A stretch of 55,033 bases of DNA from UHGV virus genome UHGV-0072939; one strand, written 5' to 3'. This document shows positions 1 through 52,171 of this stretch, one piece after another; positions within the stretch are counted from its first letter, which is position 1, and each line of letters begins with the position of its first letter. The notes under the pieces were generated by a model, which was given only the letters and a program-made list of their open reading frames with translations, was not told where the DNA came from and ran no database searches. The DNA comes from a virus. Made by a program: the position numbers and the translations under genes.

Positions 1-49
1 AATAAACAGTATTTCATGTACCGTTTTTACCCATTAAAAGGAGTTCACC

Positions 50-289: not shown

Positions 290-412
290 TAAACTTTGTT
301 TTTGCATTGCTGTTTTATAGAATCCGCCGCCAGCCGGATATTTTCAATACTCGCACTATCGATTAAAACTGGCTGGCCGCAGCCCCTCTATATACGGGGA
401 GCTGCGGTATTT

Positions 413-793
413 TCACATTACCGGGCAGTCATCAAATTCATCAGAACGCGCATCGTTGATAATGTAGATCACGACGCCAAAAACACCACTCTCATCAAGT
501 TCTGACAGGTCGTCACACTTCAACGGGTCATCGAGTCTTTCCAGAACAGTGCTCCGGGAAAATCGAATACGGCGCAGAGTAAACTCGCCAGCAATAGCAC
601 AGATCACGATTGAACCTTCACAGGCTCTGACACCAGAGTCCACCACCAGCAACGCATCTTTCATAATACCAGCACGCCAGTACGACTGGCCGGCACGCAT
701 GAAATACGTCGAAGACGGGCTTCTGATAAGCTGTTCGTCCAGTGAAATTCTTCGCTCAACATAGTCCTGCGCTGGCGACGGAAACGGCCCCAT
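413..793 (-). CDS. UmuD'-like S24 peptidase-fold protein, starting at the position of the UmuD cleavage site, with catalytic Lys replaced by Arg
   Basis: 126 aa from ATG 793..791, which overlaps the upstream stop as TAATG; aligns by eye to E. coli UmuD residues ~25-139 (GPFPSPAQDYVE vs GFPSPAADYVE, STYF, LLVVDS, GEFT, VFGVVI); GDSM appears as GQSY and the KK after GEFT as RR. Confidence 0.7.
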   Translation of the reverse strand: MGPFPSPAQDYVERRISLDEQLIRSPSSTYFMRAGQSYWRAGIMKDALLVVDSGVRACEGSIVICAIAGEFTLRRIRFSRSTVLERLDDPLKCDDLSELDESGVFGVVIYIINDARSDEFDDCPVM

Positions 794-1035
794 TACCACA
801 CCCTCCCCATCGCGCGGAGTATCCAGTATCTGTTCTCCGTCTGCTGGGTTGTCTTGTCTGTAAAATCGCCCTGATATCTCTTGATCCAGGCGTTGGCCTC
901 CTTCTCCGTGAAAAACCATCCACGCGATCGTAATTCGCGGATAAAGTCACAGGTCTGCAGGTACTGGTAACCCTTCGGATTGAGCTGCACGGCAGCCATG
1001 AATGCAAACTGAATGTCATTTTCTCTCGGCATGAT
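793..1035 (-). CDS. hypothetical small protein (80 aa), translationally coupled to the UmuD'-like gene
   Basis: ATG at 1035..1033 preceded by GAGGTG; stop TAA 795..793 overlaps downstream ATG; no family recognised. Confidence 0.5.
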   Translation of the reverse strand: MMPRENDIQFAFMAAVQLNPKGYQYLQTCDFIRELRSRGWFFTEKEANAWIKRYQGDFTDKTTQQTENRYWILRAMGRVW

Positions 1036-1249
1036 ACACCTCTCATCAATACTGATTATACATACAGTAGTTTTAACGAGAGAGCAGATCAACCCCTGAT
1101 TTCTGGCTTTCCTGTAACCCGTTATGGGATGAAGATTTTTAGTTTTCCGGGGCAGCCGCTGGTAAACTGCGCGGCGGTTGCCAACGGCATGAACACCCGT
1201 CAACCAGCCGCAGCCCGCTCTGCATACGGCGGGGCTGCGGCGCCACAGT

Positions 1250-1446
1250 CTACTTCGCTACAGCCTCCTCTGGGTCAGGTTCAGCTGGCGCGATGAAGTT
1301 TTCACCATTCCACGCATAGCCTATAGATACTCCCCGCCCCTCGGCCAGGACAAGCTCAAGACCCTCTCCCGGATCATAATCGGTTATACCATCCCATTCG
1401 ATAACATTGACGACGAGACCATTTTGAACAACTGCGTAAATGCTCA
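1250..1446 (-). CDS. hypothetical small phage protein (65 aa); possibly a tail-fibre-assembly remnant
   Basis: internal ATG at 1446..1444 of the 149-aa ORF; the upstream part of that ORF overlaps the acyltransferase gene in another frame; function not recognised. Confidence 0.4.
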
Positions 1447-1509
1447 TATTTTCTCCATATATTAACGAAAAACCCAGCCGGAGCTGGGTTATAGAGCGTT
1501 TAGTTAACG

Positions 1510-2628
1510 TTATGCTACTGCAGGTTTTCTTTCCAGCATCCCTCTTATTGCTTTCCTTGCTGGCACTTCCACGAAGTGGAAAAGCAGCGCTGAGATTGCT
1601 ATGGTTACCAACCAATACATCACGTACATGGTAGTTGGGTTTTCTTTTAGTATATCCCCATGAAATATACGTAAGTAATTCAATATTACCTGATGACACA
1701 TATACACAGAGAAACTGATCTCACCAAGATAAACAAAGTACTTATTTGATAAAAAATTAGATATCATGCCATTTTGACGTGAAAAGACAAAAACAAGAAA
1801 ACCAATAGTAGGGAAACTACCAGCTACAGCAAGCCAGTAAAAAAACGTTGCCATTGGCGAGTTGCTCCAATATCCATATAGTGAGCTAAATGTACATAAC
1901 GACAAAAAAACAAGAATTATGCTAATTAATTCAGCAGACATAAGCCTGCGATTATTTCCTTCAACATTTACAATCTTGTTTTTCATGCTAAATACATACA
2001 TGCCAAACGCAAATTCAGCAAGCCTTGAAACTGGATTTATATACACTAAGTAATACCCATCAACTGAGTCGTTCCCTGAATGCAAGGGTATTGACATTGC
2101 GGCACAGGCAATAGAGATAACTATCGGGAACGAAATGCAAAACAGCAAAACAGAATTCCCATACTTTCTGCCAAGAACCAATAGGAACGGGAACATCGCA
2201 TAGAAAAACAACTCAGTAGACACACTCCACGAAACTGCATTGTATGAAAAATAAAACTTTTGATAAGGAATCCATGATTGCATCAAAACTGAGTTTACTG
2301 AAAACACATCAGAGTAACTCTTCCCACTCTCATAAAAAATGTTAGGACCAAAAACAAAAAGGCATGTTATCAACATAACCAAGTGCAAAGGCCATATCCT
2401 TGCAATCCTGGCAATTAAAAACCTGAGATAGCCACTTTTAATATCCATATTGTAATACGTGAAAGAAAGTATAAATCCAGACAAAACATAAAAGAAAGAA
2501 ACGGCGTTATTTAGTTGAATCGAACCAATTCTAAACACCTCAAAGCCCGGTGCATTCCCCGCATGCCCTATGACAATCATTGCGGCAGCAAAAAAACGAA
2601 TGGAGGTTAACGAATTAATTTTATTCAT
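1510..2628 (-). CDS. acyltransferase family 3 integral membrane protein (O-antigen acetyltransferase-like, serotype-conversion candidate)
   Basis: 372 aa, multiple hydrophobic helices, N-terminal SIRFFAAAMIVIGHAG motif typical of acyltransferase-3/OafA/Oac family; AT-rich composition; directly downstream of tail fibre gene. Confidence 0.8.
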   Translation of the reverse strand: MNKINSLTSIRFFAAAMIVIGHAGNAPGFEVFRIGSIQLNNAVSFFYVLSGFILSFTYYNMDIKSGYLRFLIARIARIWPLHLVMLITCLFVFGPNIFYESGKSYSDVFSVNSVLMQSWIPYQKFYFSYNAVSWSVSTELFFYAMFPFLLVLGRKYGNSVLLFCISFPIVISIACAAMSIPLHSGNDSVDGYYLVYINPVSRLAEFAFGMYVFSMKNKIVNVEGNNRRLMSAELISIILVFLSLCTFSSLYGYWSNSPMATFFYWLAVAGSFPTIGFLVFVFSRQNGMISNFLSNKYFVYLGEISFSVYMCHQVILNYLRIFHGDILKENPTTMYVMYWLVTIAISALLFHFVEVPARKAIRGMLERKPAVA

Positions 2629-2707
2629 GTTTTATCATAACTTGTCTTTGGGATTTTGATGTAAAGTAGATCATGGCATAAATGATTAGTTTATGCCATG
2701 GCGATCA

Positions 2708-3556
2708 TCATGCGTACTCGCAAACTGTCACAAATCCCTTTCCTCCATTGAAACCAGCCCTTGCGGGCTGGTTAATAAGATTGACCAAACCTCCCGCGCC
2801 AGAGCCATTTTCCCCATCACCACCAGTACCACCCGCAGAATACGGAGATGCCGCACCAGTACCAAGGTTTCCTACGGAACCATTCACCACAGTTGACCCA
2901 GCGCCGGCCTTTCCCTTAGTTGAAATAATGTTACCACCTGTAGGTGCAGTAGTTTCTGTGCTGCCCCCTCTGGAAGTTGGAAAAGAGATTGCTGTGCTTC
3001 CTGTAGATCCACCTCCGTTTCCACCAGGGCAAACAATTAAAGACCCGAAACTTGAAGTGCCACCAGTCCCACCATCGCCCCCGCCTGCCGTCCCTGCGGC
3101 ACCACCCACCCCGATAGTGACGGCTTGGGATGAGCCGATTTGCACTGCTGTAAATATCCCCTTCGCATACGCTCCCGACCCACCGGCTCCTGATGCTCCT
3201 ACACTACTGGAGCCCGTTGCAGGCACACCACCACTTCCTCCACCAGCCCCCTGAACCTCTACAATTGAGAACGTCATTCCAGGAGTAGGCGTAAAGTTTG
3301 CTGAAGATGTGAACGTCCTGACGTTAAGAAGACGCCCTGAAATGGGGAGTAGCTTTTTCAGCGCAGTCAGTACCTGGGTCATATTGTTGGGATCCAGCGT
3401 CATTCCCGCCGATTCGACTATGTTTGCCAGCTCCTCCTGCAAAGCATTAAAGGCCGGTGCGCGAAGACGCGTCGCCGGGGTTCCGCCGGCAACGTTGCCA
3501 TCGGTATATTTGCCATCGGATGTGGCAGTAGGCTCAACTTGCCCGATTCTGAGCAT
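2708..3556 (-). CDS. tail fibre protein (Gly-rich, Mu S / Stf-like)
   Basis: 282 aa, GAGGA SD before ATG 3556; long Gly/Ser/Thr-rich stretches (GGGSGG, GGTGGT) typical of side tail fibres; position after the Mu R-like gene. Confidence 0.7.
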   Translation of the reverse strand: MLRIGQVEPTATSDGKYTDGNVAGGTPATRLRAPAFNALQEELANIVESAGMTLDPNNMTQVLTALKKLLPISGRLLNVRTFTSSANFTPTPGMTFSIVEVQGAGGGSGGVPATGSSSVGASGAGGSGAYAKGIFTAVQIGSSQAVTIGVGGAAGTAGGGDGGTGGTSSFGSLIVCPGGNGGGSTGSTAISFPTSRGGSTETTAPTGGNIISTKGKAGAGSTVVNGSVGNLGTGAASPYSAGGTGGDGENGSGAGGLVNLINQPARAGFNGGKGFVTVCEYA

Positions 3557-3610
3557 GGGTCATCCTCACTTGATTAAGCGATTAAAATGAAAGTCATGAT
3601 GTTGTGTCAG

Positions 3611-4204
3611 TTATGCGTAACTGAAAATAAGACGCAGATGCGAGGGCGCAATTTTAGTGATCGCGCACTCGAGTTGTTTATTTCCCCAGGAGGCCAGAGA
3701 ATCACCGCAGTAAGATGCACCTGACAGTGCGTATTTGATGGTGGTTTGCGGGGCGTTAATCTGCCAGGTAAAAGGCCACTCATCGCCGTTCAGGGCATCG
3801 CCGCACGCCGACATACCGCACATCGCGGGGCGAAACTGTGTGATGGTGATGGTATACCCCAGCTCCGCCGCCACGCGGATGTAGTAATCGCGGTTCAGGC
3901 CGCCGGTACTGATGAGCTTTGCCACCACCAGGCGCTGGCGATCGCTGACTCCATCGATTTCACCGATAGTGCAGTCATCCGGCAGACCAAGCGTCGCTTC
4001 CCATTCCGGAAGCATACTGGTCGCAGTGGGCGGAAATGCCCCGGCAATGAGATTTACCGCATCGTCATCCGAACGCTGGAATGCACTTGCCAGGGCGCGC
4101 AGAACCGCCGCCTGTACTGTTTTTGATGCCCGTGGCCATGCCCTGCCGGTGGGCAGCAGCGCACCCAGCGCGCCGGCGTAATCATCTTTCGAAAAGAGGC
4201 TCAT
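3611..4204 (-). CDS. tail protein, YmfQ/DUF2313-like (Mu gp48 position)
   Basis: 197 aa; gene order and recalled similarity to e14 YmfQ / Mu R family. Confidence 0.65.
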   Translation of the reverse strand: MSLFSKDDYAGALGALLPTGRAWPRASKTVQAAVLRALASAFQRSDDDAVNLIAGAFPPTATSMLPEWEATLGLPDDCTIGEIDGVSDRQRLVVAKLISTGGLNRDYYIRVAAELGYTITITQFRPAMCGMSACGDALNGDEWPFTWQINAPQTTIKYALSGASYCGDSLASWGNKQLECAITKIAPSHLRLIFSYA

Positions 4205-5343
4205 ACAAAATGCACCTCACCCAGCACCGGAATTTCACCCACCGCAAACGTAATATTGGCCGTCGGAGAGTTCAGGATATAGCCCGTGGTGCCGTTAACA
4301 TCACCGATGCTCCCGTTGATATCCGAGAGATACACTTTCCCGGAGCCGTCAGGATTGGCCTCATCAAAAAACAGCGTTGTCAGCGCATCCCTGATGCCCT
4401 GTACCGTGGTGCTGTCGGCATTTTTGATCCCCGCAATTTCGACGTCGATGGTTTTCGGGACTGGAGAGCACACAAACACGATGGCTGTGTCAGTCTGCAG
4501 CGGGTAGATGTGATCGGCGACAGCCAGCTGGTCCCCGGTGGCCCTGAGCGCCCCCCAGTCTTCCAGCTGCGATATTCCGTCGGTACCGACAGGAAACCCG
4601 CCGCTGGCGTTCCGGTCACACATGATGTACACCCCGACGGTCCCGGCCCCGTTCAGGCGACGTTTTACCCACGCCCGGGTCACGCCAGGTACCTCGAGCG
4701 CCCATTTTTTATAATCGGTATCGCTGCCTCCCTGTGGCGGATTCTGCCATGCCAGCAGGCCACGGCTGCGAAACTCGTCTTCACTTTCAATGTCCGCCCC
4801 GCCGGTAGCGGCAGACAGCAGCGTCACCTGCGCATCCACCCCGGCAATATTGGCATCCAGTGTCAGAAGGGTCCCGGCATCCGCATTACCGCGGGCACCG
4901 CCCCCGGTCACATCGCTGGTGATATCCGGCAGTATGGCGGTCACGGCAACAGTACCATAGCCATTCGCCTGAATTTTCAGCTCAGCATCCGTGCGATACT
5001 GGTATCCGTCGCCACGGTTCAGGATCGTACCCGGAGGAATGATGCTGTCAGCGGCACCGGAGGCCTGTGCCGATGGCGATTTCGCGGCCATGGCTGGTTT
5101 ACGAAAAACCTGCTTCATGGCCATCCATCCTGCCTGGAACTCATCGGTAGACGTGAACGGGTTCGTCTGCAGGGCTATATAGTCCAGGTAGGCGTAGTGC
5201 AGATGTCCCATCCCGGCATCCATATCGGCGAGCACTTTCAGGTTAGCGAAGCGCAGCAGCGCGCCGACTCCCTCCAGCTCCGCCTGCATAAACTTCCGGT
5301 TTCCGTCACGCAGCTCGCTGAGCGTCGGTCGTTTAAACGGCAT
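4201..5343 (-). CDS. baseplate J-like protein (Mu gp47 / P2 gpJ family)
   Basis: 380 aa; synteny within Mu-like baseplate block; ATGA overlap with neighbours. Confidence 0.8.
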   Translation of the reverse strand: MPFKRPTLSELRDGNRKFMQAELEGVGALLRFANLKVLADMDAGMGHLHYAYLDYIALQTNPFTSTDEFQAGWMAMKQVFRKPAMAAKSPSAQASGAADSIIPPGTILNRGDGYQYRTDAELKIQANGYGTVAVTAILPDITSDVTGGGARGNADAGTLLTLDANIAGVDAQVTLLSAATGGADIESEDEFRSRGLLAWQNPPQGGSDTDYKKWALEVPGVTRAWVKRRLNGAGTVGVYIMCDRNASGGFPVGTDGISQLEDWGALRATGDQLAVADHIYPLQTDTAIVFVCSPVPKTIDVEIAGIKNADSTTVQGIRDALTTLFFDEANPDGSGKVYLSDINGSIGDVNGTTGYILNSPTANITFAVGEIPVLGEVHFV

Positions 5344-5344
5344 A

Positions 5345-5782
5345 TTAACGTTGCTCCCATATCCAGTAAAACCTGAATTCCTGCCAGTCTTTGCCCGGTG
5401 CCAGATACCGGATGATGAGGTTCAGGCGGTTCGGCATGACGATCTGCGCAACGGGGATAACATCGCTGACCACGCCATCATCCTTAAGCCAGGCAAGAGC
5501 CTCGCGCGCATATTCCTCCGCTCTTTTCGCCACGTCGGTCGTCAGTTTCTGCCTCCGGAGTAACCACAACCTTGACCCGAGCTGCGATTCATCACCAGAA
5601 TCCCCCCACCAGCCACGGCGATCGCTGCCTTCATAATCGTCATCCGCGCGCGCCAGCCGGTCGGTAAACAGGCTGTCCAGTATCGCGGTCTGTAAATCGT
5701 ACCCGGTGGTGAGTGCACCCGGGCCTTCCTGCCAGTCGGCAACCATCTCGTCCACGTTCCAGAAAGAGGCAATGTCGCTCAT
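5345..5782 (-). CDS. baseplate protein, Mu gp46-like
   Basis: 145 aa; position between V-like and J-like genes; recalled GP46 family features. Confidence 0.7.
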   Translation of the reverse strand: MSDIASFWNVDEMVADWQEGPGALTTGYDLQTAILDSLFTDRLARADDDYEGSDRRGWWGDSGDESQLGSRLWLLRRQKLTTDVAKRAEEYAREALAWLKDDGVVSDVIPVAQIVMPNRLNLIIRYLAPGKDWQEFRFYWIWEQR

Positions 5783-6363
5783 GTCACCTGCTCCTCGGGT
5801 TGTTCACTGCGGATATCGTCATTGCCTCTCTGGGCATTTTTAACCAGGTGATCGTGGTCGTTGTGTGCATCCCGCAGGTCTTTCAGCGTTCTGCTGTTGG
5901 TGTCGCAATTGTCCACGATGTCGCCGGTACATCTCAGAAGCGGGGTGTTCGCCAGAATCCCCTTGCTGGCGTTAATGGTCACGCTTGTGGCGTTGTTGAC
6001 TTCCACATCCCTGCCTTTTGCATCGACAAATACCCCCTCTTTGGTCAACAGCACCTCCTGCCCCCACTGGCTGTAGATAACGGTTTCGCCGTCTTTCAGC
6101 CCGGTGCGCCGGTACCCCTGATGATTCGTGGCAATGACCACCGGACTTGAACGGTCACCGCCAATAAAGGCCAGGACCACGTCGGTGCCTTTTGGCAGCC
6201 CGGAAGAAAAGCCAAACTCGGCGAGCCGCGGCGCGCTGGCGACCTCAAGCGGCGTCTGGTACTGAACAGTCTGCACAACACCACTGTCTTTCAGCGCAGT
6301 GATCCGGCCAATGCCCAGCATGCTGGCGATGCGGGTGGCGGCGCGCCTGACTAACTGGTTCAT
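5779..6363 (-). CDS. baseplate assembly protein V-like (Mu gp45)
   Basis: 194 aa; synteny; N-terminal OB-like region typical of gpV spike proteins. Confidence 0.7.
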   Translation of the reverse strand: MNQLVRRAATRIASMLGIGRITALKDSGVVQTVQYQTPLEVASAPRLAEFGFSSGLPKGTDVVLAFIGGDRSSPVVIATNHQGYRRTGLKDGETVIYSQWGQEVLLTKEGVFVDAKGRDVEVNNATSVTINASKGILANTPLLRCTGDIVDNCDTNSRTLKDLRDAHNDHDHLVKNAQRGNDDIRSEQPEEQVT

Positions 6364-7445
6364 GTATTTAACCCCGGTATCTGCTGGTAGAAGGCGTAGG
6401 GCTGAACTTCAAACGCTGCCGGCGGCATCAGTGTCATGCGTGCATGCGTCCCGTTGTCATCACGCATGTAGGTGACATCTGCCAGCAGCAGCTCGGTATC
6501 AGGGAGGCGGAACGTCGGCATATTCACCGGAATAAGGGTATTGGGCTCCCACAGATTCCCCGCCTCATCCCGCCAGGAGTCTGTCGTCACAGTCAGCGGC
6601 TTCGAGCGGCCATACCGGCGGTTCATTTCCCAGTCGATAGCGCGCTGCGCCTGTTGCGATGCCATCAGAGTGCTTTCAATAATGGAAATATGCTTTCGGT
6701 AGCGCATGCGGGCGGCTTCTGGATCCCTCGCCGTCGCCAGCGTCACGGCGTCATAGGCCGAATCCGGCGAATAGCCTGCTATCGGGGAAATACCCATAGA
6801 AACACCGACATAGTCAGAAAACCTGTCAGCCATCGATTTACGGTAATAAGCCTGCTCGACGTTCACACCCTCGGCAATACCGCTGGCGGCACGGCGCGTA
6901 CCTACGCGGGTCAGCAGCAGGTTGCCGTCAGGCTGGTCGTAATAAAGCAGGGCTGACCACCGGGCCACCCGCTCTATAATCTCTTGCGGTGACTCCCCCC
7001 AGTTAAGGGTGAACTGGGGAACCTTAATCAGATCGCTTACATCCGTCGAGACGCTGATGCCGTAATACGACGCCAGCCGCGTGGCGATTTCCAGCGCATT
7101 ACCGCCATTGATGACGTTATTGGGCCACTCAGCGGAGCAATCCACCAGATCCTGGCATTTGCTTCTCCCCGTCGCGCGCACCTCGTGGCGGGAGCGCGAT
7201 ATTGACGGCTCCCAGTCATCCACATAGCCCGTCAGTGTCAGGTCATTCCCGATACGGACGGTACAGGGCATCCCTTCTTCCACAAGCTGGCGGTTATCAC
7301 TGCCGGGGAAATAATCCATCAGGCCAAGATCGAAATCTGAGGGGAAACGTTCAATACCGCGGGTCACCCTGACAGAATCCCAGCCCTCAATAATTTTACC
7401 GCCGACCGTCAGCGAGACGGCTTCCTGCTCGCTGTCTGCACTCAT
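6360..7445 (-). CDS. baseplate hub / tail protein, Mu P (gp44)-like, P2 gpD-like
   Basis: 361 aa; synteny between DNA-circulation-like and V-like genes. Confidence 0.7.
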   Translation of the reverse strand: MSADSEQEAVSLTVGGKIIEGWDSVRVTRGIERFPSDFDLGLMDYFPGSDNRQLVEEGMPCTVRIGNDLTLTGYVDDWEPSISRSRHEVRATGRSKCQDLVDCSAEWPNNVINGGNALEIATRLASYYGISVSTDVSDLIKVPQFTLNWGESPQEIIERVARWSALLYYDQPDGNLLLTRVGTRRAASGIAEGVNVEQAYYRKSMADRFSDYVGVSMGISPIAGYSPDSAYDAVTLATARDPEAARMRYRKHISIIESTLMASQQAQRAIDWEMNRRYGRSKPLTVTTDSWRDEAGNLWEPNTLIPVNMPTFRLPDTELLLADVTYMRDDNGTHARMTLMPPAAFEVQPYAFYQQIPGLNT

Positions 7446-8845
7446 TGTCTCAGTACCTTCATGGTTACCGGCATAAACGCCGGATGCGGAACGCGCGCTT
7501 CCTGCACCAGTTCATCCGCACGGGCGGCATCCTGATACAGCCGGTTAGCCAGTGTCAGCGCCGGAAGGGGCTGCGCCATCGTGACCTGAATCAGTTCGCT
7601 CAGCCCGGATGCGCGATCGCTCATTGTGGCTAAAAAGGAAGATCTGATGGCGAGCAGACTGCCATACATACCGTCCTCCGCCCGGTCACCGGCCAGCACC
7701 AGCGCCTTATCCAGCTGAACAGAAACCCGCTGCGTTATCGCTTCAGCCTCATCGCGGCTGGTCGGGCTGGCATCAGCCGCTGCGCGGGTCATGGCCCCCG
7801 TGCACAACACAACGATCAGCGTGTTCATGGTCGCGGATATCGCCTTGCTGCTGTCGGATTGCTGGTATTCCGTGCTGATGGCATTAGCCAGTTTTTCCAG
7901 TGCTGAGATCCGGTCATTCACGCTGCCGGCACTGTCAAGAATGGCATTCACAACATCGGCGACACCCTGCACAAAGTCATCCGGGTTGGTTGAGTTATTC
8001 AGATGATCCACGGTATCGGTGATGTTTTTCCGGTCCATCACCGACTGCGCGGTCACCTGGTCGGCAAGCGCCTGAGTGTCCTCCACGTCGGCAGTCGGCG
8101 TATTGCCTGAAACAGCGGAAGAGCTACCACCGACTGGCCCCTTGCTGTAACGGCCATATTGCGTATTTCCAAACGTGGAATTCAGGACGTTACTGAGGTT
8201 TGTGACTTCGCTGATGGTGCTGTCCACCATATTCGTCCAGAACGTGACGGTACCTTTAATGGTGTTGATCGCCTGCGTAACACCGCGGATTTCACCCTTT
8301 ATCCTGGCGAGCGTACTGGCGACCGTCGTGCTCACCAGTTTCAGGTAGTTGGTGTTTACCGTATCGCCTGCGGTGGTACTGTCCGTGACCGCAAATACTT
8401 TAAGGCCTGACTCAATCGCCATCAGGGTGAACTCAAACACTCGGCCATTTTCTGTCGATCCGGAAATACGCAGACCGTTTTCAGGAATAGAAACCGTTAA
8501 TTCGCCGAGCGTCGGGTGGATCAGGGTACCGCTTCCCTTTGCTTCACAGGCGGCGATCAGCGACTGACGCTGGGTAATGGCATCGCCGCCGCCGTAGACC
8601 TGGCTGTTCTGGATAAGGAACCCGCGAATAATAAACCGCCGGGTGGCGCGGCCGATATCTTCAATCCACGCGGTATCACGCCAGGGGTACTCATGCACGG
8701 CCTGACGACGGCCGTGGCTGCCCTCTTCTGCCACAACGGCAAACGGCACGCCGCGAAACGAGCTGGCGCGCAGCTGGCTCTGCCAGTCATCGCTGGCACC
8801 ACCACCCATCAGGGACGTTATTACATCCTGGATAACTGGCATCAC
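7442..8845 (-). CDS. DNA circulation protein N-like (Mu gp43)
   Basis: 467 aa; position immediately downstream of tape measure; recalled family resemblance. Confidence 0.65.
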   Translation of the reverse strand: MMPVIQDVITSLMGGGASDDWQSQLRASSFRGVPFAVVAEEGSHGRRQAVHEYPWRDTAWIEDIGRATRRFIIRGFLIQNSQVYGGGDAITQRQSLIAACEAKGSGTLIHPTLGELTVSIPENGLRISGSTENGRVFEFTLMAIESGLKVFAVTDSTTAGDTVNTNYLKLVSTTVASTLARIKGEIRGVTQAINTIKGTVTFWTNMVDSTISEVTNLSNVLNSTFGNTQYGRYSKGPVGGSSSAVSGNTPTADVEDTQALADQVTAQSVMDRKNITDTVDHLNNSTNPDDFVQGVADVVNAILDSAGSVNDRISALEKLANAISTEYQQSDSSKAISATMNTLIVVLCTGAMTRAAADASPTSRDEAEAITQRVSVQLDKALVLAGDRAEDGMYGSLLAIRSSFLATMSDRASGLSELIQVTMAQPLPALTLANRLYQDAARADELVQEARVPHPAFMPVTMKVLRQ

Positions 8846-8911
8846 GCCTCCGGAAATAAAAAACCGCCAGAGCGGCGGTTAACATTGCTGATAGCGACCG
8901 GAATTTCTCGG

Positions 8912-10717
8912 TCAGTAAGACATGGGCAGCGTGATCCTGCCACCATCCCGGGTAATGTATTCCTTCCGTTCCCCTTTCCCGTCCACCATAGTGATTTCAA
9001 GCTTCATCTTTTGCTCTTCCATGGCACTTTTAAATGAGCGGGTGAGGTTTTCGGTCAGCACCTGCCCCGAGGCGCCCCCCTGCGATGCTGGCTGGATAAT
9101 GCCGGTTCCGGCCGTTCGCTCCGTCACCGGGGCGTCAGAAAAAACATTGTCAGGCGGATTTTCTGCATTAATGATCCGCTGGTAATGTCCAAGTACCGCG
9201 CCGGGATAGGCCTGATTTTCCTGCCCCCACCGGCGGGTGTCGTAACCGCCGTTGTAATATCGAAGCGCCAGCGGAACATTACCGCCCGAATTCTTCAGGT
9301 TCTCGGACAGAATTTGCGCACCTGCCATGATGTTTTGCCGCGGGTCGGTCCAGTCGGTAACGCCGGTCGACTGGAAATTTGACGGCATGATCTGCATCAG
9401 CCCTTTAGCCCCGGCTTTGCTGACTGCCTGCGGGTTACCTCCGGACTCCTGGGTCATTATGGCCTTCAGCAAGCGGGGATCCACACCGTATTGCTTGCCG
9501 GCTTCATTGAGTAGAACGTCATACTGTCCGCCCTGGTTATACGGTACATAGTTATTGCCGCCGACAGCAGGTCGGGTAATGGCAGCCATATCATCCTGCA
9601 GCTGGTTCGCCGTATCCGTCGCCCGGTAATTCGCATCGTAGCGTTTGCTCACGGCATCCGTCATAAACCCGGCATCCACCATCCCGCGCTCGCTGCGGGG
9701 CAGGCTGTTATAGAGTTCCTTGTCACCCTGAATACGGCGCAGTTTGGCCGCGTCCGCGCTGCTGATAAACCCCAGCGCATGCGACAGGCCGGTGAAATCG
9801 CCGTTGGTAAACAGGTCTGTCACGCCCTCGAGGCCGTCTTTCACCGACCCGTCGGAAAGCAGGCCTTTGAACAGCTTATTCTGCGATCGCTGCTTCAGTC
9901 CATCCCATGAGGCGCCCAGTTCGTTCATCGTGCCGTTGATATCGGACAGTTGTTTATTAAGTTCGGGATCGACCGTCAGCCCAAACGTATCGGATTTCGC
10001 CAGCAGGGTTTTCATGCGCTCGCCTTCACGCATCAGCGCCAGCATTTCAGGGGTAAAACCCATCGCATCAGCGACAGATTTCTGCTGCTCTGGTCGCAAC
10101 GTCGGGAACACGCGCGCGATCTCTTCCATGGTTTTGAGCGTATCGACTGAACCATCCTTGTTTTTCTGGATCTGCACACCAATTTGCGACAACGCGCCAA
10201 GGACCTGACCGTTTGCACCGCTGGCCGCTTCCTTCAGCGTTTTTGCCATCCCTTCAATCGATGCATTTGCGCTTTCGCTGTCAGCCCCCAGAATACGCAT
10301 GGCGCCCGCGAGCCGGGTAAAATCATCAACCCGCATACCGGCGTTTTTCGACGCTGTATCCAGGTTATACGCCTCCCGGGAGGCCTCCCGAAAACCGTAG
10401 GCAACCTGCTGAAGGCCATATCCTGCCGCCCCAACAGCACCGAGCGCACCCAGCTTGCCGGAGATTTCCCCCACCATTTTTAGCGGGGGAACCATATCAC
10501 CGATGAACTGCACGTTATCCCGCGCGCTCTTCGACATATTCTCCAGGCGTGAAATAAAACCGTTCAGCCCGTCGACCGTCTCCTGGCCGCCTAACTGGAG
10601 CCCTTCTTTGGTTTTATTCAGTTTCGGTTCCAGATCGCGGATAGCTTCGTCAATCCGGGTTATCGCGTCACTGACCTGATCGCTGGCCACCAGCTCAAAA
10701 TCAAAAGAATTACTCAT
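8912..10717 (-). CDS. tail tape measure protein with C-terminal lytic transglycosylase (SLT) domain
   Basis: 601 aa; C-terminal LLKAIMTQESGGNPQAVSKAGAKGLMQIMPSNF matches the SLT catalytic motif (ES...GLMQ); position after chaperone pair. Confidence 0.8.
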   Translation of the reverse strand: MSNSFDFELVASDQVSDAITRIDEAIRDLEPKLNKTKEGLQLGGQETVDGLNGFISRLENMSKSARDNVQFIGDMVPPLKMVGEISGKLGALGAVGAAGYGLQQVAYGFREASREAYNLDTASKNAGMRVDDFTRLAGAMRILGADSESANASIEGMAKTLKEAASGANGQVLGALSQIGVQIQKNKDGSVDTLKTMEEIARVFPTLRPEQQKSVADAMGFTPEMLALMREGERMKTLLAKSDTFGLTVDPELNKQLSDINGTMNELGASWDGLKQRSQNKLFKGLLSDGSVKDGLEGVTDLFTNGDFTGLSHALGFISSADAAKLRRIQGDKELYNSLPRSERGMVDAGFMTDAVSKRYDANYRATDTANQLQDDMAAITRPAVGGNNYVPYNQGGQYDVLLNEAGKQYGVDPRLLKAIMTQESGGNPQAVSKAGAKGLMQIMPSNFQSTGVTDWTDPRQNIMAGAQILSENLKNSGGNVPLALRYYNGGYDTRRWGQENQAYPGAVLGHYQRIINAENPPDNVFSDAPVTERTAGTGIIQPASQGGASGQVLTENLTRSFKSAMEEQKMKLEITMVDGKGERKEYITRDGGRITLPMSY

Positions 10718-42425: not shown

Positions 42426-42467
42426 AGGTAAATGCCCGGGTGCAGCCGGGCTGTGTGGAGAAACTAC

Positions 42468-42839
42468 ATGACCAAGTTGATCAACAAAAAAGTATGCGCC
42501 CTTACCGGACGACAGCGACAAGTTCTGGACTTTGTTACCCAGTACATCGCCAGTCACGGTATGCCACCCACTAAATCTGAAATCGCTGTCGGGATGGGAT
42601 TTTGCTCGACAAATGCAGCTGTTGAACACTTACGCGCATTGGAGAAGAAAGGCTTCATAGAGATACGTACTGGTGTTTCGCGCGGGATCATGCCTGTAGC
42701 AAAGCGAGAAATATCGCTACCATCCACCAGCAATGAAGATTACTGGTTTGATGGCACTTTTCAGCATCGGCGCTATGAGCGTGATATATGCAAAGCAGTT
42801 GAAGCGATGGGATTAAAGGTTTTGGGGGGTGGATCATGA
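42468..42839 (+). CDS. LexA N-terminal DNA-binding-domain homologue lacking the peptidase domain
   Basis: about 123 aa from ATG 42468 (GGAG SD); LTGRQRQVLDFVTQYIASHGMPPTKSEIAVGMGFCSTNAAVEHLRALEKKGFIEIRTGVSRGI closely parallels the LexA winged-helix domain; no GDSM/KR domain follows. Confidence 0.7.
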   Translation: MTKLINKKVCALTGRQRQVLDFVTQYIASHGMPPTKSEIAVGMGFCSTNAAVEHLRALEKKGFIEIRTGVSRGIMPVAKREISLPSTSNEDYWFDGTFQHRRYERDICKAVEAMGLKVLGGGS

Positions 42840-43045: not shown

Positions 43046-44175
43046 CCGCGCGCCATCATAAGAACGGCTCAACACTTATTATCACGTTCACATATAAAGG
43101 GGTTCTATGCCGGGAACCCCTTTCCCGTATCGAGCTGAATCCAAAGGGTATAAAATATGCAGAACGCCTCCTGGGAGAGGTTCAGAACAGAATTGCGGAG
43201 GGTGATTTCGATTATGCCAAATACTTCCCAAAATCTAAGAAGTTGGATATTTTTGGGAAAGTTAACCGGACAAAAAACATCAAGTCTTATCTCGATGAAT
43301 ATCTGGAGATCTGCGCAAATCGAAACTTATCGCCATCGACAATTGGAGGGTATGAAAAATGCCTCTCAGCTCTGTCTGATTTACATAAACTACACGTCGC
43401 CGAGCTTACACCGGCAGTATTGAAAAACTGGATCGCCAGCCGGAAAACAAAGCTTAAAACGATACGAAACAACCTCTCATTTTTGCGTAGCGCAATCGAT
43501 GAGGCAGTGACTGATGGGCTGTTGACGATAAACCCGGTTACGCTTGTCAGCGCCAGCCGGTACCACGTGATCGACAGCACGCCGAACCCCGACGATTACG
43601 AGGTGGATCCGTTCACACCTGCAGAGGCCAGCGCCATTTACATGCACTGCAGGTTTCAGGAATGGGAAAACCTGTTCCGCTTTGCATTTAACACCGGGAT
43701 GCGTAGTTCTGAACTGTGCGCGTTGCGCTGGCCTGATATCGACTTTATCGAGAATACTGCTCACGTTCAGGCAGCCAGCGTTGTCGGTGTGCTGAAGGGT
43801 ACCAAGACAAAAGCTGGTACCCGTAAAGTCGAGCTGAATAGCGATGCGCTGTCGGCGCTGCAGGCGCAAAAGCCATTCACCTTTATGAAGAGCGATTTCA
43901 TCTTCAGCGATCCTAAAACAGAGAAACCATGGGCAAACGCTGATGCGATTCGAAAAAAGGCCTGGGTCCCCACGTTGAAGAAAGCAGGAGTTCGGTACCG
44001 AAACCCATATCAAACACGCCATACGTTCGCTACGCGCCACATCAGCCAAGGCGTTAACCTTTTCTGGTTGGCCGGGCAAATGGGGCACAAAGGACCGGAA
44101 ATGTTGTTCCGTCACTATGGTTCCTACCTGGCTGCTTATGATGGGAAAACGGCAATTGAAGCGAGGAAATTTTGA
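43000..44175 (+). CDS. tyrosine integrase (lambda Int family)
   Basis: 391 aa; C-terminal catalytic region with R...HTFATRH...Y pattern (RHTFATRH, HYGSY). Confidence 0.9.
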   Translation: MGEKKQGSLQLPRGITARHHKNGSTLIITFTYKGVLCREPLSRIELNPKGIKYAERLLGEVQNRIAEGDFDYAKYFPKSKKLDIFGKVNRTKNIKSYLDEYLEICANRNLSPSTIGGYEKCLSALSDLHKLHVAELTPAVLKNWIASRKTKLKTIRNNLSFLRSAIDEAVTDGLLTINPVTLVSASRYHVIDSTPNPDDYEVDPFTPAEASAIYMHCRFQEWENLFRFAFNTGMRSSELCALRWPDIDFIENTAHVQAASVVGVLKGTKTKAGTRKVELNSDALSALQAQKPFTFMKSDFIFSDPKTEKPWANADAIRKKAWVPTLKKAGVRYRNPYQTRHTFATRHISQGVNLFWLAGQMGHKGPEMLFRHYGSYLAAYDGKTAIEARKF

Positions 44176-44283
44176 GTCCTTCCTGACGGAGGGAGGACAT
44201 CGCAAGGACATGAAAATGCACGTAAAATGCACTCACAGAGTTTTTAAAAGTTAATTTTGTTATATATCAATACATTAAGATAG

Positions 44284-44319
44284 TTTCGGACACGGGTTCA
44301 ACTCCCGCCAGCTCCACCA
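44284..44319 (+). other. prophage attachment site: partial copy of the tmRNA (ssrA) 3' end
   Basis: TTTCGGACACGGGTTCAACTCCCGCCAGCTCCACCA matches the recalled 3' end of E. coli tmRNA with one mismatch; upstream sequence is not tmRNA, so this is a partial att copy. Confidence 0.7.
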
Positions 44320-44448
44320 ATCATGATTGGACGGTGTAAGGACAACACCAACAAAAACAGGAAGTTAGAAGTCTCAGCAAAACACCGACCAGACGGTGAG
44401 GAGACATAAAAGGATACGCAAAGGAGCCGCGGCTCCTGGTAACATGAA

Positions 44449-44470
44449 AGCCCACAGATGTGGGCTTTTT
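44449..44470 (+). terminator. intrinsic terminator hairpin (bidirectional context)
   Basis: AGCCCAC-AGAT-GTGGGCT followed by TTTTT; lies just past the 3' end of the minus-strand autotransporter gene. Confidence 0.6.
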
Positions 44471-44479
44471 CGTTGATGG

Positions 44480-47400
44480 TCAGAACGACCAGTTCACACC
44501 AGCTACCGCGTTCCACGGGGATTCCACACCGGCACTATGGCTATACCCCACCCCAAGATGCCCGCTTAACGTACTGCTGAATGAGGCTTTAATACCTGCC
44601 TGGTATATTCCACGTCTGCCCGACAAATAATTGACGAAATTACCGTCACTATTCACTTTCACCCGGTTATCATCGACAAATTCTTTGCGCACAGCCGCCT
44701 TCAGCCACGGCTCAACTTCCATACCGTTCCCCAGACGCATGTTGTAACTCAGCGTTGCGCCCAGTTCACGATATATACTGCGGGTATCGACTGATTTCGA
44801 TTTCATGCCATTGGATAAATGATATTCGGGGTTATCAGCGGTGAACCCCGTTAACGATGCATACGGCGTCAGGTTCCAGTTACCATCGGTAAATCGCATC
44901 CCGGTTTCAATGTGACCGCCCAGCCCGTTGCTGTGGTAACTGCCATTGGCGGCTCCACCGCTGCTCATTTTACCTGCTACGTTACTTTTAAAACGGTTCA
45001 GCTTCACGACACCGTCCAGATAGAAACCACTTTCATGTTCCCAACTGGCATAGCCGCCCAGAGAATAACTGCCCACACTGCCATGTCCTCCGCGATCAAA
45101 ACCGATATGTGAATGGGAATAGCCCATAAAAGCGCCTAGCGTGGTAATTCCTTCAGGAATATCATTACGGCTGTCGATCCCCACTGTCATTCCGGTCAGC
45201 GTCTGCTCAAACCCGGCACCCGCATCGGTGGTGACATTATTACGGGTGTTATACGTCGCCCCCCAGACATTATTGTTGTGTGGACTCGCTTTCATTATGT
45301 TCAACCGCTCGCGAATACTGTTTAGCTCAGCATCAAATACCAACGGTAATGTTGCTGCCATATTGAGTACGGCTGCCGTAGAAGGCGTAATGCGTTTCTC
45401 CGGAACGGGTGTCGGCGTTGGATCGGGAGTAGGGTCTGGTTTTGGATTTGGGTCTGGCTTTGGATCGGGTTTTGGGTCTGGCTTTGGATTTGGGATGGGG
45501 TCCGGGTTGGGTTTGACATCATTGGTCAGGTTCCAGTTGCTGTTGCCGTCACTTTTCAGGACATACTCATAGGTCCCAAGATCAACGAAACCGCCGGTAT
45601 TGCCCAGCGTAAACGAAGCATCCCCTCCCCCTGTTTTCACCAGCGTCATCGCGTCGTCAGACTGTGGGCTGACGCCGGTATCCTGAACAAAGATTTTAAA
45701 ATTACCAGTGGCGTTGTTGTTGACGACCAGTTGATCGCCCCGGGAGCCTGCAACGTTGGTATGCAGGTAGAAATTACCGCTACCGGAAAGTTCATTGGTT
45801 GTCAGCGTATTGTAGATACCGTTAGTTGTGGCAGGCGCTGCTGTTTGTGCTGACAAATAAACATCACCGTCGTTGAGTAGCAAACTGTTTACTCTATATT
45901 CGCAGTTGCTGGTACCTGCACAGGAATTATTGCTGTTAAGCCAGACACTGCCCCGGCTGGCAGCCGTCAGGTCGGCAAGCGTGGTATCGACGCCATTTCC
46001 CAGAGTCAATGTCGCGCTATCGGTAATCCGGACCGCCCCTTCGAGTTTAACTGGCGTAACATTATCCCGTGGCGTCATTAACGACAGGCTTCCTGTCGCG
46101 CCACTGACCGATGCATCCGCCAGCGTACCTGCGTAGACGATTGCCGTACCGCCAGCGACCTGGAGATCTTCTGCCCGGGCCAGAGCCTGAAACTCATCTT
46201 TTGACCGCCCAAGGGTATATTGCCCGCCAGAGTTAACCTTTGTGGCGGAGTCCTGACCCAGGTTTTGCATTGCCCCACCCTTGCCAACCGTGGAGTCGCG
46301 AGCTTCGGTACCTGCTAATACCAATAAATTACCGCCATTTTCCAGCAACATATTAGTCGCTAAATTGCCGGAAATGGAAAAAGTACCGTACTGGTGAGTA
46401 CCGCTGATTTCAATACCGTTAGCCGTGCTCGTCTGGAGAGCGGCACCGCTGTTCTGGACGATATCTGTCGCTTTGCCATTATCGTTGACTGTCAGCGTAC
46501 CGCCTTCATTGATCTTTGTTTTTATTGCCTCTCCGTTAGCTGAAACTGTTTGTATTCCGCCGTCGTTAATTGTTGTCTCATTCGCCACACCCTCGACAAT
46601 TTGTTCACCGCCGGTGAGCGTCGTGCCTGTCGCAGTGGCTTTTGTTTTGACGATCTCCCGTCCGCCCATATTGACCTGTGTTTTGTCAGAAGAGGTGTCT
46701 GACTCCACGGTTAACACGCCGCCATTTGCCAGCAGGATATTGTTCGCCGCACCCTGCTCGATGCTGAACGCGACGCCATCCGCGCGTGTTCCTGTGACCC
46801 GCGTCGCCCTGGTGGTTGCAACCAAAGCGCCCTGGCTACTCTGCTGTATCCCCGTTGCGCTGCCTTTCTCCCGCACATCGAGTGTGCCGCCGTCATTAAG
46901 CACCGAGTTTTCAGCCAGACCGCCCTCATTAACTACCTGTGAACCCCCATTAATAATGGAACCTTCCGCTGTCCCGTTTGCCATAATTTGTTGTAGGCCA
47001 GAGACGATATCGGTATTGATTGCCTTACCATAATTCTGAACGGTTTGCGTGCCACCATTGATGTGTGTTTTCTCTGTTGACCCACCATCAACAATTTGTT
47101 CACCACTTTCGATATTTGCTTCAGTGGCTAAACCATATACCGTTTGCTTGCCACCTTTGATATTTGCTTTATCAGAAGTGGCACTGGCATATATTGTTTG
47201 GGTGCCAGCACTATTGAGTACAGTGCCAACATCTTTTCCATAAACATCCATTTTGCCGTTGGCATTAATAATCGTGTCAACTGCGCGGGAACCAGTGACG
47301 ACTGTTAATGAGCCAGCGTTTTCCAGCACTACATTTTTAGCTTCTGAATTCCTGATGTAGAAAGCATCACCATAACTGTTGGTTCCTTCGATAAGTGTTC

Positions 47401-49060
47401 CGGAGGTCGTGGAAGCAATTAATGCGCCGCCGGATTGTTGCTCAACATGCTTAGCCTCACCACCGTCCTGAACCTCCAGAACGCCGCCATTATTAAGTCT
47501 GGTGCTATCTGTTTTAGCCTCCTTCTGGACAATCAGCTTACCGCCAGTATCAATGGTAGTATTTTTCGCCGAGGTTTTAGCCACTACCGTCAGTTCGCCG
47601 GTATTTTCCAGCACAACATAATTAGCCTCCCCTCCGGTAATAGTGAAGTGAGAGAGCTTGTTGTATCCTTCGATATCAGTCCCTGCACCCGTGTTGGCAA
47701 CTAAAGCACTGCCCGTCTCCTGGTTAACCCCATGTGCAATACCGCCGGTATAGACAATCAGCGAGCCTCCGGCGCTAATATTGCTGCCAATTGCCGTACC
47801 ATCTTTCTCAACAACCTGCCGGCTCCCGGAGGATATAATTGTTGTGTCAGCTTTCCCGCCGCTTTTGATATTTTGCGTTCCGCTGTTGATATTGGTGCCT
47901 GTGGCTATGCCATAATTATTAATATTCTGTGTGCCACCATTAATTATGGTATTTGTCGCGTTTCCTGCAACATCCATAACCCCGCCATTATCTATTCGGG
48001 TCGCATCAGCTTTAGCATTGGTTAAAACTGACATTGTTCCTTTATCTTTAATAATCGTCTTGTTTGCCGAACCATATGCGTTTATGTCTAAATGACCACC
48101 GTTTTCCAGCAACACATTGTCTGCCACGTGATTGTGGATGGAGAATGCACCTTCACTATTCGTACCGCTCACCGTCGTACCGTTAGTGTTAGTTTTTAAA
48201 ATTGCACCATCGTGCTGGGTAACATTTGTTGCCGTACCACCACTAACATCAAGCACGCCACCAGAATAAACTTCAATAACATCCGAGGTGCTGGTGTTAT
48301 CAACAATTTGCGTGCCACCAGAATAGATATGCGTATTTTTTGCCGTTGACTTACTATTCAGAGACTGAGTTCCGCCTTCAATCGTCGTGTCCAGCGCACG
48401 GCTCTCATATACTCTTTGCTCACCGCCATTTTTAATGGTTGTTGTTTCTACTGTGCTCTGTTCAACATACTGTCGACCACCATTTATGGTTGTGTTCGTT
48501 GCCAGACTTCCTTGTACTACGTCCTGAGAGCCAGACTTATTTATCGTTGTACCATCAGCATGCCCTTGAACTTTTACTATCTGGCTACCACCATCAATGA
48601 GTATTCCATTCGCACTCCCTCCCTCTACGCGTGAAGCACCGCCCTTAATTGTCGTTCCATTGCTGATACCCCCTTTATAAACGTCCTGATTGCCACTCTC
48701 GATTGTCGTACCTGTGGAAATACCCCCGTCATGAATTGACTGTCTGCCACCGTTAATGGTTGTATTATTAGCCTGCCCCACAAAATTGTTATGACTTCCT
48801 ATATCTTGATATCCACCAGATTCAATAAGACTTCCATTAGATACCCCGCCATGAACATTCTGCTGGCCATGGTTGATAATATGAGTGTTATTTGTTGTAC
48901 CTCGTTCATCCACTTTTTGGTTGCCATCTACAGTCTCATCGTTTACCACACCAATAACATTAGTAGTGAAGGCAGCCATCCCGGGCGGGGCATATATCAA
49001 GGCAGATATCAATAAGGAAAGTACTGAGCGGCGACAATAATAGGGACTGGTCCTGTTCAT
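44480..49060 (-). CDS. ypjA: AIDA-I type autotransporter adhesin (type Va secretion)
   Basis: ORF 44480-49189; favoured start ATG 49060 (GAGG 9 nt upstream) giving MNRTSPYY... signal region; repetitive GG.Q.V passenger repeats, PKPDPKPDP linker, C-terminal beta-barrel ending NWSF; ypjA assignment from memory. Confidence 0.85.
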   Translation of the reverse strand: MNRTSPYYCRRSVLSLLISALIYAPPGMAAFTTNVIGVVNDETVDGNQKVDERGTTNNTHIINHGQQNVHGGVSNGSLIESGGYQDIGSHNNFVGQANNTTINGGRQSIHDGGISTGTTIESGNQDVYKGGISNGTTIKGGASRVEGGSANGILIDGGSQIVKVQGHADGTTINKSGSQDVVQGSLATNTTINGGRQYVEQSTVETTTIKNGGEQRVYESRALDTTIEGGTQSLNSKSTAKNTHIYSGGTQIVDNTSTSDVIEVYSGGVLDVSGGTATNVTQHDGAILKTNTNGTTVSGTNSEGAFSIHNHVADNVLLENGGHLDINAYGSANKTIIKDKGTMSVLTNAKADATRIDNGGVMDVAGNATNTIINGGTQNINNYGIATGTNINSGTQNIKSGGKADTTIISSGSRQVVEKDGTAIGSNISAGGSLIVYTGGIAHGVNQETGSALVANTGAGTDIEGYNKLSHFTITGGEANYVVLENTGELTVVAKTSAKNTTIDTGGKLIVQKEAKTDSTRLNNGGVLEVQDGGEAKHVEQQSGGALIASTTSGTLIEGTNSYGDAFYIRNSEAKNVVLENAGSLTVVTGSRAVDTIINANGKMDVYGKDVGTVLNSAGTQTIYASATSDKANIKGGKQTVYGLATEANIESGEQIVDGGSTEKTHINGGTQTVQNYGKAINTDIVSGLQQIMANGTAEGSIINGGSQVVNEGGLAENSVLNDGGTLDVREKGSATGIQQSSQGALVATTRATRVTGTRADGVAFSIEQGAANNILLANGGVLTVESDTSSDKTQVNMGGREIVKTKATATGTTLTGGEQIVEGVANETTINDGGIQTVSANGEAIKTKINEGGTLTVNDNGKATDIVQNSGAALQTSTANGIEISGTHQYGTFSISGNLATNMLLENGGNLLVLAGTEARDSTVGKGGAMQNLGQDSATKVNSGGQYTLGRSKDEFQALARAEDLQVAGGTAIVYAGTLADASVSGATGSLSLMTPRDNVTPVKLEGAVRITDSATLTLGNGVDTTLADLTAASRGSVWLNSNNSCAGTSNCEYRVNSLLLNDGDVYLSAQTAAPATTNGIYNTLTTNELSGSGNFYLHTNVAGSRGDQLVVNNNATGNFKIFVQDTGVSPQSDDAMTLVKTGGGDASFTLGNTGGFVDLGTYEYVLKSDGNSNWNLTNDVKPNPDPIPNPKPDPKPDPKPDPNPKPDPTPDPTPTPVPEKRITPSTAAVLNMAATLPLVFDAELNSIRERLNIMKASPHNNNVWGATYNTRNNVTTDAGAGFEQTLTGMTVGIDSRNDIPEGITTLGAFMGYSHSHIGFDRGGHGSVGSYSLGGYASWEHESGFYLDGVVKLNRFKSNVAGKMSSGGAANGSYHSNGLGGHIETGMRFTDGNWNLTPYASLTGFTADNPEYHLSNGMKSKSVDTRSIYRELGATLSYNMRLGNGMEVEPWLKAAVRKEFVDDNRVKVNSDGNFVNYLSGRRGIYQAGIKASFSSTLSGHLGVGYSHSAGVESPWNAVAGVNWSF

Positions 49061-49429
49061 AAATTTCATCCTCTGAAAAGTGAATACTGAGTAGCGTTTA
49101 AGCGACCTTAGCTTTGCTGCAACATCAGCCCACAGGCACCAGACCAGGGGATTCATCCTGAAGAGACAGCGCAAGTGTATTGTGTTCACCGCTCATCAAA
49201 GACATCATGATGAAATGATGATATTCCGCATAAGAATGAGGCATTTTTTAAACGCAGTGCGCTGAAGTGTGGTTGGATAAAAAAGTCAATCCATTCAGGA
49301 AATACGGGCGTATTCTTTTCTTTCGACAATGAGGCCGTTGGCAAAATAAAATGATTTACATAATCGTTTCTGATGAATATCTTCTGCTCACATAAAAATC
49401 ACACAATAACTTTGAGATCGCAGATTGTT

Positions 49430-52095: not shown

Positions 52096-52171
52096 TGGTG
52101 GCCCTTGCTGGACTTGAACCAGCGACCAAGCGATTATGAGTCGCCTGCTCTAACCACTGAGCTAAAGGGCC
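52096..52171 (-). tRNA. ileY: tRNA with anticodon CAU, tRNA-Ile2 (lysidine) type
   Basis: reverse complement GGCCCTTTAGCTCAGTGGTTAGAGCAGGCGACTCATAATCGCTTGGTCGCTGGTTCAAGTCCAGCAAGGGCCACCA folds as a cloverleaf with GGTTCAAGTCC T-arm and CAU anticodon; matches recalled ileX/ileY. Confidence 0.9.

Follow-up and report, generated by a model that had tools for sequence, protein, structure and literature searches.

The tmRNA gene ssrA is a well-documented integration hot spot. In Escherichia coli K-12 it is the target of CP4-57, a P4-type cryptic prophage with ypjA as its right host flank. The duplicated segment of CP4-57, psaA, comprises about 14 nt of the extreme 3' end of the gene, and CP4-57 itself is annotated from ssrA position 349. 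Its integrase gene intA, transcribed away from the intact ssrA, begins 204 bp past that gene. Phage lambda is a second point of reference. It has an intergenic target with a core identity of 15 bp, its xis and int genes follow each other in this order towards att, and its integrase is heterobivalent with an arm-binding domain. The attR copy of CP4-57 is devoid of T357, and excision inactivates the tmRNA (PMC10107115). More generally, the Islander signature of a tDNA island consists of an intact tRNA or tmRNA gene, the island and a displaced 3' fragment of the gene (PMC4383910). In a survey of integrase genes that adjoin intact tRNA genes only, tRNA-then-int and convergent arrangements dominate (PMC2951348).

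Here we describe a 55,033-nt stretch of DNA, UHGV virus genome UHGV-0072939, the whole of which is called the window below. With a probability of roughly 0.93 its segment 44284-44470 contains the attR at which a prophage of about 44.5 kb, brought into the 3' end of E. coli ssrA by a tyrosine integrase of the lambda style, meets the host DNA.

Results

A displaced 3' end of ssrA

The plus strand of the window at 44284-44319 reads TTTCGGACACGGGTTCAACTCCCGCCAGCTCCACCA and matches tmRNA positions 328-363, i.e. the last 36 nt of ssrA (Table 1). Alignment to the intact ssrA of E. coli 20A24 gave an identity of 35/36 with a single mismatch of A 44292 versus G336. The Rfam tmRNA model returned a 5'-truncated match that ended at 44319 with 34.3 bits and an E-value of 2.6e-12; this score is below the gathering score of the whole gene, as expected for a fragment. 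The aligned segment covers the T arm, the 3' strand of the acceptor stem and CCA, and the A at 44292 breaks the first pair of the T stem. A whole tmRNA gene was not detectable in the window with ARAGORN or with Rfam at the gathering threshold. The 27 nt of the match that form the common core (see below) were present in the window as a single copy, with 0 of 100 shuffles yielding a match when up to 3 mismatches were allowed, and no second copy of the core was found in the window even at 3 mismatches. Rfam matches to rsmX and isrB in 44100-44500 turned out to be the terminator hairpin only and were discarded.

A preliminary description made from the sequence alone had reported a 36-nt tmRNA 3' end in plus orientation with one mismatch, about 110 bp past the integrase stop and lacking the rest of the gene. 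Formal alignment, Rfam and ARAGORN agreed with it in all these points; the distance from the stop of the integrase ORF (44175) to the match was 108 nt.

Table 1. Features of the prophage ends and of the adjoining host DNA (window positions)
Feature	Position	Strand	Basis and remarks
Prophage left end: last 49 bp of P' arm, then dinI (50-289)	1-289	+	Pfam DinI; identity to contig L004
Excisionase gene (xis), 69 aa	42836-43045	+	PHROG 2917 'excisionase', E=8.9e-38
Tyrosine integrase gene (int), 391 aa	43000-44175	+	Pfam and PHROG; transcribed towards the att site
Phage P arm of attR	44176-44292	+	Identity across assemblies; homology to LMessi attP
Two direct AGGACAT copies, 11 bp apart	44194-44200, 44205-44211	+	Candidate recombination-protein sites
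Two direct AAAATGCAC copies, 11 bp apart	44213-44221, 44224-44232	+	Candidate arm-type integrase sites
Exact match (TATCAATACATTA) to IHF consensus WATCAANNNNTTR	44265-44277	+	Between arm sites and core; candidate bending site
36-nt tmRNA 3' match	44284-44319	+	Sequence, alignment, Rfam
Common core CGGGTTCAACTCCCGCCAGCTCCACCA, 27 bp	44293-44319	+	attL/attR/attB alignment; exact copy in LMessi attP
Host B' arm: native 160-bp ssrA trailer and ssrA-ypjA spacer	44320-44479	+	Identity to empty site
16-bp perfect palindrome AGGAGCCGCGGCTCCT	44422-44437	.	Host DNA, outside the att site
Native ssrA intrinsic terminator, hairpin then T5	44446-44470	+	Fold; identical in empty-site strains
ypjA, adhesin-like autotransporter	44480-49189	-	ORF list; first host gene right of the prophage

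The intact ssrA and the left end of the prophage

The intact ssrA had been predicted to lie beyond the left edge of the window. An exact-protein look-up led to contig ABXXFZ010000006.1 of GCA_047874185.1 (L004), which has 0 mismatches to window positions 1-10289; a window position equals the L004 position minus 9951. L004 carries smpB and a complete ssrA at 9371-9733 (ARAGORN) with the tag ANDENYALAA. The gene spans 218-580 bp to the left of window position 1, its end being at 218 bp, and the prediction was thereby confirmed. The left junction lies outside the window and was taken from L004 with its 10,289 identical overlapping bases. From this identity L004 and the window very probably, though not provably, belong to the same genome.

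A second att copy, which the preliminary description had proposed to look for, was found as a copy of the 27-bp core at L004 9707-9733, corresponding to 244-218 bp left of the window. The distance from core to core yielded a prophage length of 44,537 bp. The integrase gene was about 43 kb away from ssrA and thus at the end distal to the intact gene, as had been inferred before; this arrangement was also seen in the complete genome of UMNK88.

The P' arm between the left core and dinI contains a trailer that was 55% identical to the host trailer of the B' arm (z=6.5), and it ends in a strong terminator hairpin of the phage's own (L004 9854-9885) with -18.3 kcal/mol. The trailer and terminator of ssrA thus have a diverged homologue in the phage. 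About 40 bp upstream of dinI the left window edge cuts through a canonical LexA (SOS) box, TACTGTATAAATAAACAGTA (L004 9943-9962; window 1-11), whose right half is located within the 49 bp of P' arm that the window contains. After dinI a UmuD-like gene follows on the minus strand (413-919). The LexA box, dinI and the UmuD-like gene make up an SOS-related cargo cluster beside attL.

Limits of the core

Alignment of attL, attR and attB showed that exactly 27 bp, 44293-44319, are common to the three. The base to the left of the core is G in attL, where it is host DNA, and A in attR, where it is phage DNA. To the right of the core attL continues with phage CTTTTGATAGG and attR with host ATCATGATTGG, the first base being C versus A. 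The flanks have the B-O-P' and P-O-B' parentage of a conservative site-specific insertion. Strand exchange must fall inside the 27-bp core. The crossover is most likely at the 7-nt T loop TTCAACT (44297-44303), between the inverted CGGG and CCCG. A scheme of tDNA sublocations, T loop versus 3' end, was reportedly set out by Williams in 2002 and 2003, and the 2002 work reportedly includes a symmetric T-loop sublocation, to which the proposed crossover would correspond.

A perfect palindrome of 14 bp, CCAATCATGATTGG (window 44317-44330), comprises the CCA end of the ssrA fragment together with the beginning of the host trailer. It is present in the empty site, too, and is missing from the P' arm of the phage.

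Excisionase, integrase and the P arm

The excisionase gene overlaps the start of int by 46 nt. Its product had no Pfam match; a 210-nt ORF at the corresponding position in relatives carries an excisionase annotation. Upstream, a 135-aa protein encoded at 42432-42839, with a 4-nt overlap with xis, has a LexA-type DNA-binding domain (PF01726) as its only domain and may be a regulator of the excision module.

The integrase showed an N-terminal Arm-DNA-bind_2 domain (70.3 bits) and a Phage_integrase domain (63.2 bits), both above the Pfam cut-offs, and matched PHROG 1 'integrase' with an E-value of 8e-64. Its translation contains the motifs GMRSSE, YQTRHTFAT, GH and RHYGSY. Identity to the integrases of LMessi, PhiR12 and phiES15 was 84-87%, with 86.6% for LMessi.

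Between the int stop and the core lies a P arm of 117 bp, which was identical in six independent assemblies with the same integrase, whatever the right flank. It is homologous to the P arm of LMessi attP and to those of related prophages and is unlike ssrA upstream of 44284. Two pairs of direct repeats were noted in it. In the first pair the AGGAC and GGAC columns were invariant in seven diverged P arms. The 9-mer of the second pair, AAAATGCAC, occurs 3 times on the plus strand of the window versus 0.21 expected, and two of the three copies are in the P arm. The same tandem pair is present in the P' arm at L004 9823-9842, and A-ATG-AC-TAAAATGCAC is invariant in relatives. The enrichment and conservation of the AAAATGCAC pairs in both arms, together with the arm-binding domain of the integrase, suggest that they are arm-type Int sites. 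The IHF consensus WATCAANNNNTTR has 3 matches in the whole window on both strands, and TCAATA of the match next to the core is conserved in relatives. The AGGACAT pair and the IHF-consensus match are candidate accessory sites.

The host side of the junction

From 44320 to the stop of ypjA the window agreed base for base with strain 20A24, which has an empty site with ssrA directly adjoining ypjA; ypjA of this strain is broken by IS1 further in. In both, CCA and the ypjA stop are 160 bp apart, and the same 160-bp spacer was found at attR of UMNK88 and to the right of CP4-57 in K-12. In matching E. coli genomes, with up to 99.9% identity, ypjA is annotated as ypjA/ehaD. Further into the host DNA is the only tRNA of the window, 52096-52171 on the minus strand. 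ARAGORN called it tRNA-Met (CAT); the orthologue in UMNK88 is annotated as tRNA-Ile, of the lysidine-modified ileY type.

The palindrome at 44422-44437 is the only perfect 16-bp palindrome of the window. With 0.84-0.93 expected and at least one present in 56% of shuffles, a single one in 55 kb is no more than chance. Transcribed into RNA it forms a hairpin of 6 bp with a 4-nt loop on either strand, the -10.5 kcal/mol (z=-1.7) being unexceptional. It is missing from the attP of the phage and from the other B' contexts used by the same phage.

The stem of the terminator is formed by 44446-44455 and 44460-44469 with a GC core of 44450-44455 and 44460-44465, and the T run is at 44466-44470. The fold had -15.4 kcal/mol with z=-5.2 and was part of the centroid structures of both strands. 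A stable GC-rich hairpin directly followed by a T run qualifies it as a predicted terminator. A simple consensus terminator scan did not flag 44446-44470 on the plus strand; pairing of the A tract with the T tract is the probable reason. The A tract upstream would make the predicted terminator usable from the ypjA side, too. In the lysogen the terminator sits downstream of int. The RNA of the entire B' trailer folded on either strand into several successive hairpins (z=-3.4 and -4.5).

Relatives with the same attachment site

The free phage LMessi contains a P arm, the exact 27-bp core and a P' arm as a contiguous sequence, with the core 133 nt after the integrase stop. We reconstructed the attP of the present phage by joining window 44176-44319 to L004 9734 onwards. 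LMessi, a homologue of the present phage and not identical with it, was 89% identical to this attP over 208 nt. In the complete genome of UMNK88, with a related integrase, ssrA is followed by dinI and a prophage of about 36 kb, with xis, int, attR and ypjA at the other end, and an int-to-ypjA junction of this type was found in 14 complete E. coli genomes. LMessi, the PhiR12 phages, the UMNK88 prophage and CP-1639 share with the present prophage an integrase of 84-87% identity, the 27-bp core, the ssrA site, a P' arm with ATGCAC repeats and a terminator, and dinI after ssrA at the left end. They differ from it in the rest of the phage and in the P arm outside the conserved motifs. phiES15 and phi467, with integrases of 84-85% identity, do not have an ssrA core directly after int. 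phiES15 (L008 2680-3000) has two genes between int and the P' arm, in which the record ends, and the integrase of phi467 is split into two ORFs (L009 2676-3160).

The tail of the present phage is Mu-like and contractile, and its structural genes have 55-60% G+C. Across 3000-36000 of the window the structural and replication genes range from 55 to 62% G+C versus about 49-50% for int and ypjA. Along with the Mu-like baseplate and contractile tail set we noted an O-antigen-type acyltransferase gene (1510-2628) in a patch of low G+C. The phage was not found among 5,426 complete E. coli genomes; window 1-1300 was unmatched and the structural genes reached only about 79% identity. Identical copies are present in many draft and metagenome assemblies.

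To the right of the identical int and P arm we saw four different sequences, with divergence setting in inside the core or directly past it. They were ypjA in the window, a P4-type island (L018), a CP4-57-like flank (L019) and ypjA with a damaged fragment (L021). L018 and L019 are tandem arrays. In L018 (4177-5701) a P4-type integrase gene with Arm-DNA-bind_3 and Phage_int_M domains follows attR. The displaced fragment of L019 (4177-4600) is devoid of T357 and runs into the CP4-57-like flank. In L021 (about 4310) the displaced ssrA fragment has lost 8 nt (TCCACCAA), and in OkiPb01695 and 06-00048 (L012 and L013, about 1310) it has lost 5 nt. Excision in L021, OkiPb01695 and 06-00048 would truncate the tmRNA; the copy in the window is intact.

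Discussion

We favor the view that the locus arose by site-specific recombination between ssrA and a phage attP with a 27-bp copy of the end of this gene, comprising T arm, acceptor 3' strand and CCA. Past this copy the attP has its own, diverged ssrA trailer and terminator. Recombination within the core joined the body of the host ssrA to the 3' flank of the phage, forming attL with an intact tmRNA. In the same event the 3' end of the host gene with its trailer, the palindrome and the terminator was carried behind xis and int at the far end, forming attR. This view is carried by the identities and limits of the P arm, the core and the B' arm, by the intact ssrA at the other end and by the contiguous attP of a free phage, all of which could be read directly from the DNA. 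The earlier proposal of a prophage integrated at ssrA is borne out on both sides of the core, with the spacer of the empty site to the right and xis, int and the match to a free-phage attP to the left.

The order of xis and int towards att, the heterobivalent integrase with an arm-binding domain, the repeated candidate arm sites in both arms and the IHF-consensus site between arm and core resemble lambda, the resemblance in site layout being inferred from sequence. In contrast to lambda, the target is an RNA gene and not intergenic, and the core identity is 27 bp.

The locus has the standard signature of a tDNA island. We found an intact target gene at one end (ssrA on L004), a co-oriented 3' fragment downstream at the other (44284-44319, plus strand) and an internal tyrosine integrase with Pfam scores above the cut-offs. 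The outer flanks join seamlessly in the empty attB of 20A24, and in the homologue LMessi the inner flanks are joined as a gene-restoring attP. Nothing essential differs from the island signature; the integrase gene adjoins the fragment instead of the intact gene. An int beside the fragment falls outside the survey of integrase genes next to intact tRNA genes (PMC2951348), yet the position is constant within this integrase group.

The site is distinct from that of CP4-57 despite the common target and the common right flank ypjA. The integrase has Arm-DNA-bind_2 instead of the Arm-DNA-bind_3 and Phage_int_M domains of the P4 family. It is encoded about 43 kb from the intact ssrA, instead of adjoining it and being transcribed away. 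The identity block is longer than the last 14-15 nt of ssrA; the T loop is part of the 27 nt that are common. The preliminary description had suggested a comparison of the core with CP4-57-type att sites. With 27 nt versus about 14 nt the core does not belong to this type, and a CP4-57-type site was rejected because integrase family, int position and core length all differ.

The 36-nt match extends 9 nt beyond the core, and one might regard it as a decaying pseudogene copy, where a random G-to-A mutation at 44292 hit a duplicate of 36 nt and the att identity is at least 36 nt. The 8 nt to the left of the mismatch (TTTCGGAC) do agree with ssrA, and displaced ssrA fragments of other strains have decayed by losing 5 to 8 nt. 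Yet the position was A in six of the six related junctions compared, including the attP of the free phage LMessi, and G in attB and attL. Relatives of the rl0044 type have CACGATC before this position without any resemblance to ssrA and still keep the A; likewise, the likeness of TTTCGGAC is wholly missing in some relatives that retain it. Because the A is kept where the ssrA likeness upstream is missing, we assign A 44292 to the phage arm, and decay of a longer duplicate is very unlikely. The mismatch marks the boundary between phage arm and core, and the match consists of the 27-bp core plus 9 nt of phage arm (TTTCGGACA, 44284-44292) that resemble ssrA by chance. A fragment left behind by an older, lost element of a tandem array, with the present prophage ending elsewhere, is conceivable at a hot spot like ssrA, where tandem arrays with this very phage exist (the P4-type integrase immediately to the right in L018). 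This is extremely unlikely at the present locus, where the P arm runs straight into the core and the core straight into the native ssrA-ypjA spacer, without additional DNA at either joint. The spacer measures 160 bp in window and empty site alike, the window has one core copy, and neither a second copy nor an integrase remnant was found between 44176 and 44480.

The palindrome and the terminator might themselves be functional parts of the prophage end, i.e. sites for Int, Xis or host factors or a sib-like element for the control of int. Both are within 150 bp of the core, and either strand of the B' trailer has an unusual amount of structure (z=-3.4 and -4.5). However, both are identical in empty-site strains and in K-12 beside an unrelated element, both are missing from the attP of the phage, and the same phage adjoins B' sequences without them. 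One 16-bp palindrome is expected by chance, and its hairpin has a z of only -1.7. We consider such a function highly unlikely. Because the sequence from 44320 to the ypjA stop is identical to that of empty-site strains, the palindrome and the terminator are host DNA. They belong to the native ssrA trailer and terminator, shared with the convergent ypjA, and not to the prophage. The preliminary description was right about the position of the palindrome and about the hairpin-T5 terminator; being host sequence, the two have no relation to the end of the prophage.

Lysogeny might alter the 3' processing of the tmRNA or the read-through into dinI, or the fate of the int mRNA between attP and attR in a sib-like manner. 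Such a change in ssrA output comes into consideration because trailer and terminator are replaced, an SOS-boxed dinI is directly downstream of ssrA and the native terminator is behind int. We regard it as improbable. ssrA is very strongly transcribed, and if true, this would be a regulatory effect of lysogeny on ssrA output beyond simple integration.

Junctions of this type are known, and no new biological question follows from the present one. For annotation the result matters in that the limits of the prophage are now exact to one base and that palindrome and terminator are assigned to the host ssrA-ypjA spacer. The lysogen keeps a wild-type tmRNA gene because the last 27 nt of ssrA are supplied anew by the phage. 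From 44293 on the attR copy is undamaged, with T357 present at 44313, and because of this excision should regenerate wild-type ssrA. Thus, unlike the excision of CP4-57, excision of the 44.5-kb prophage should leave the tmRNA intact.
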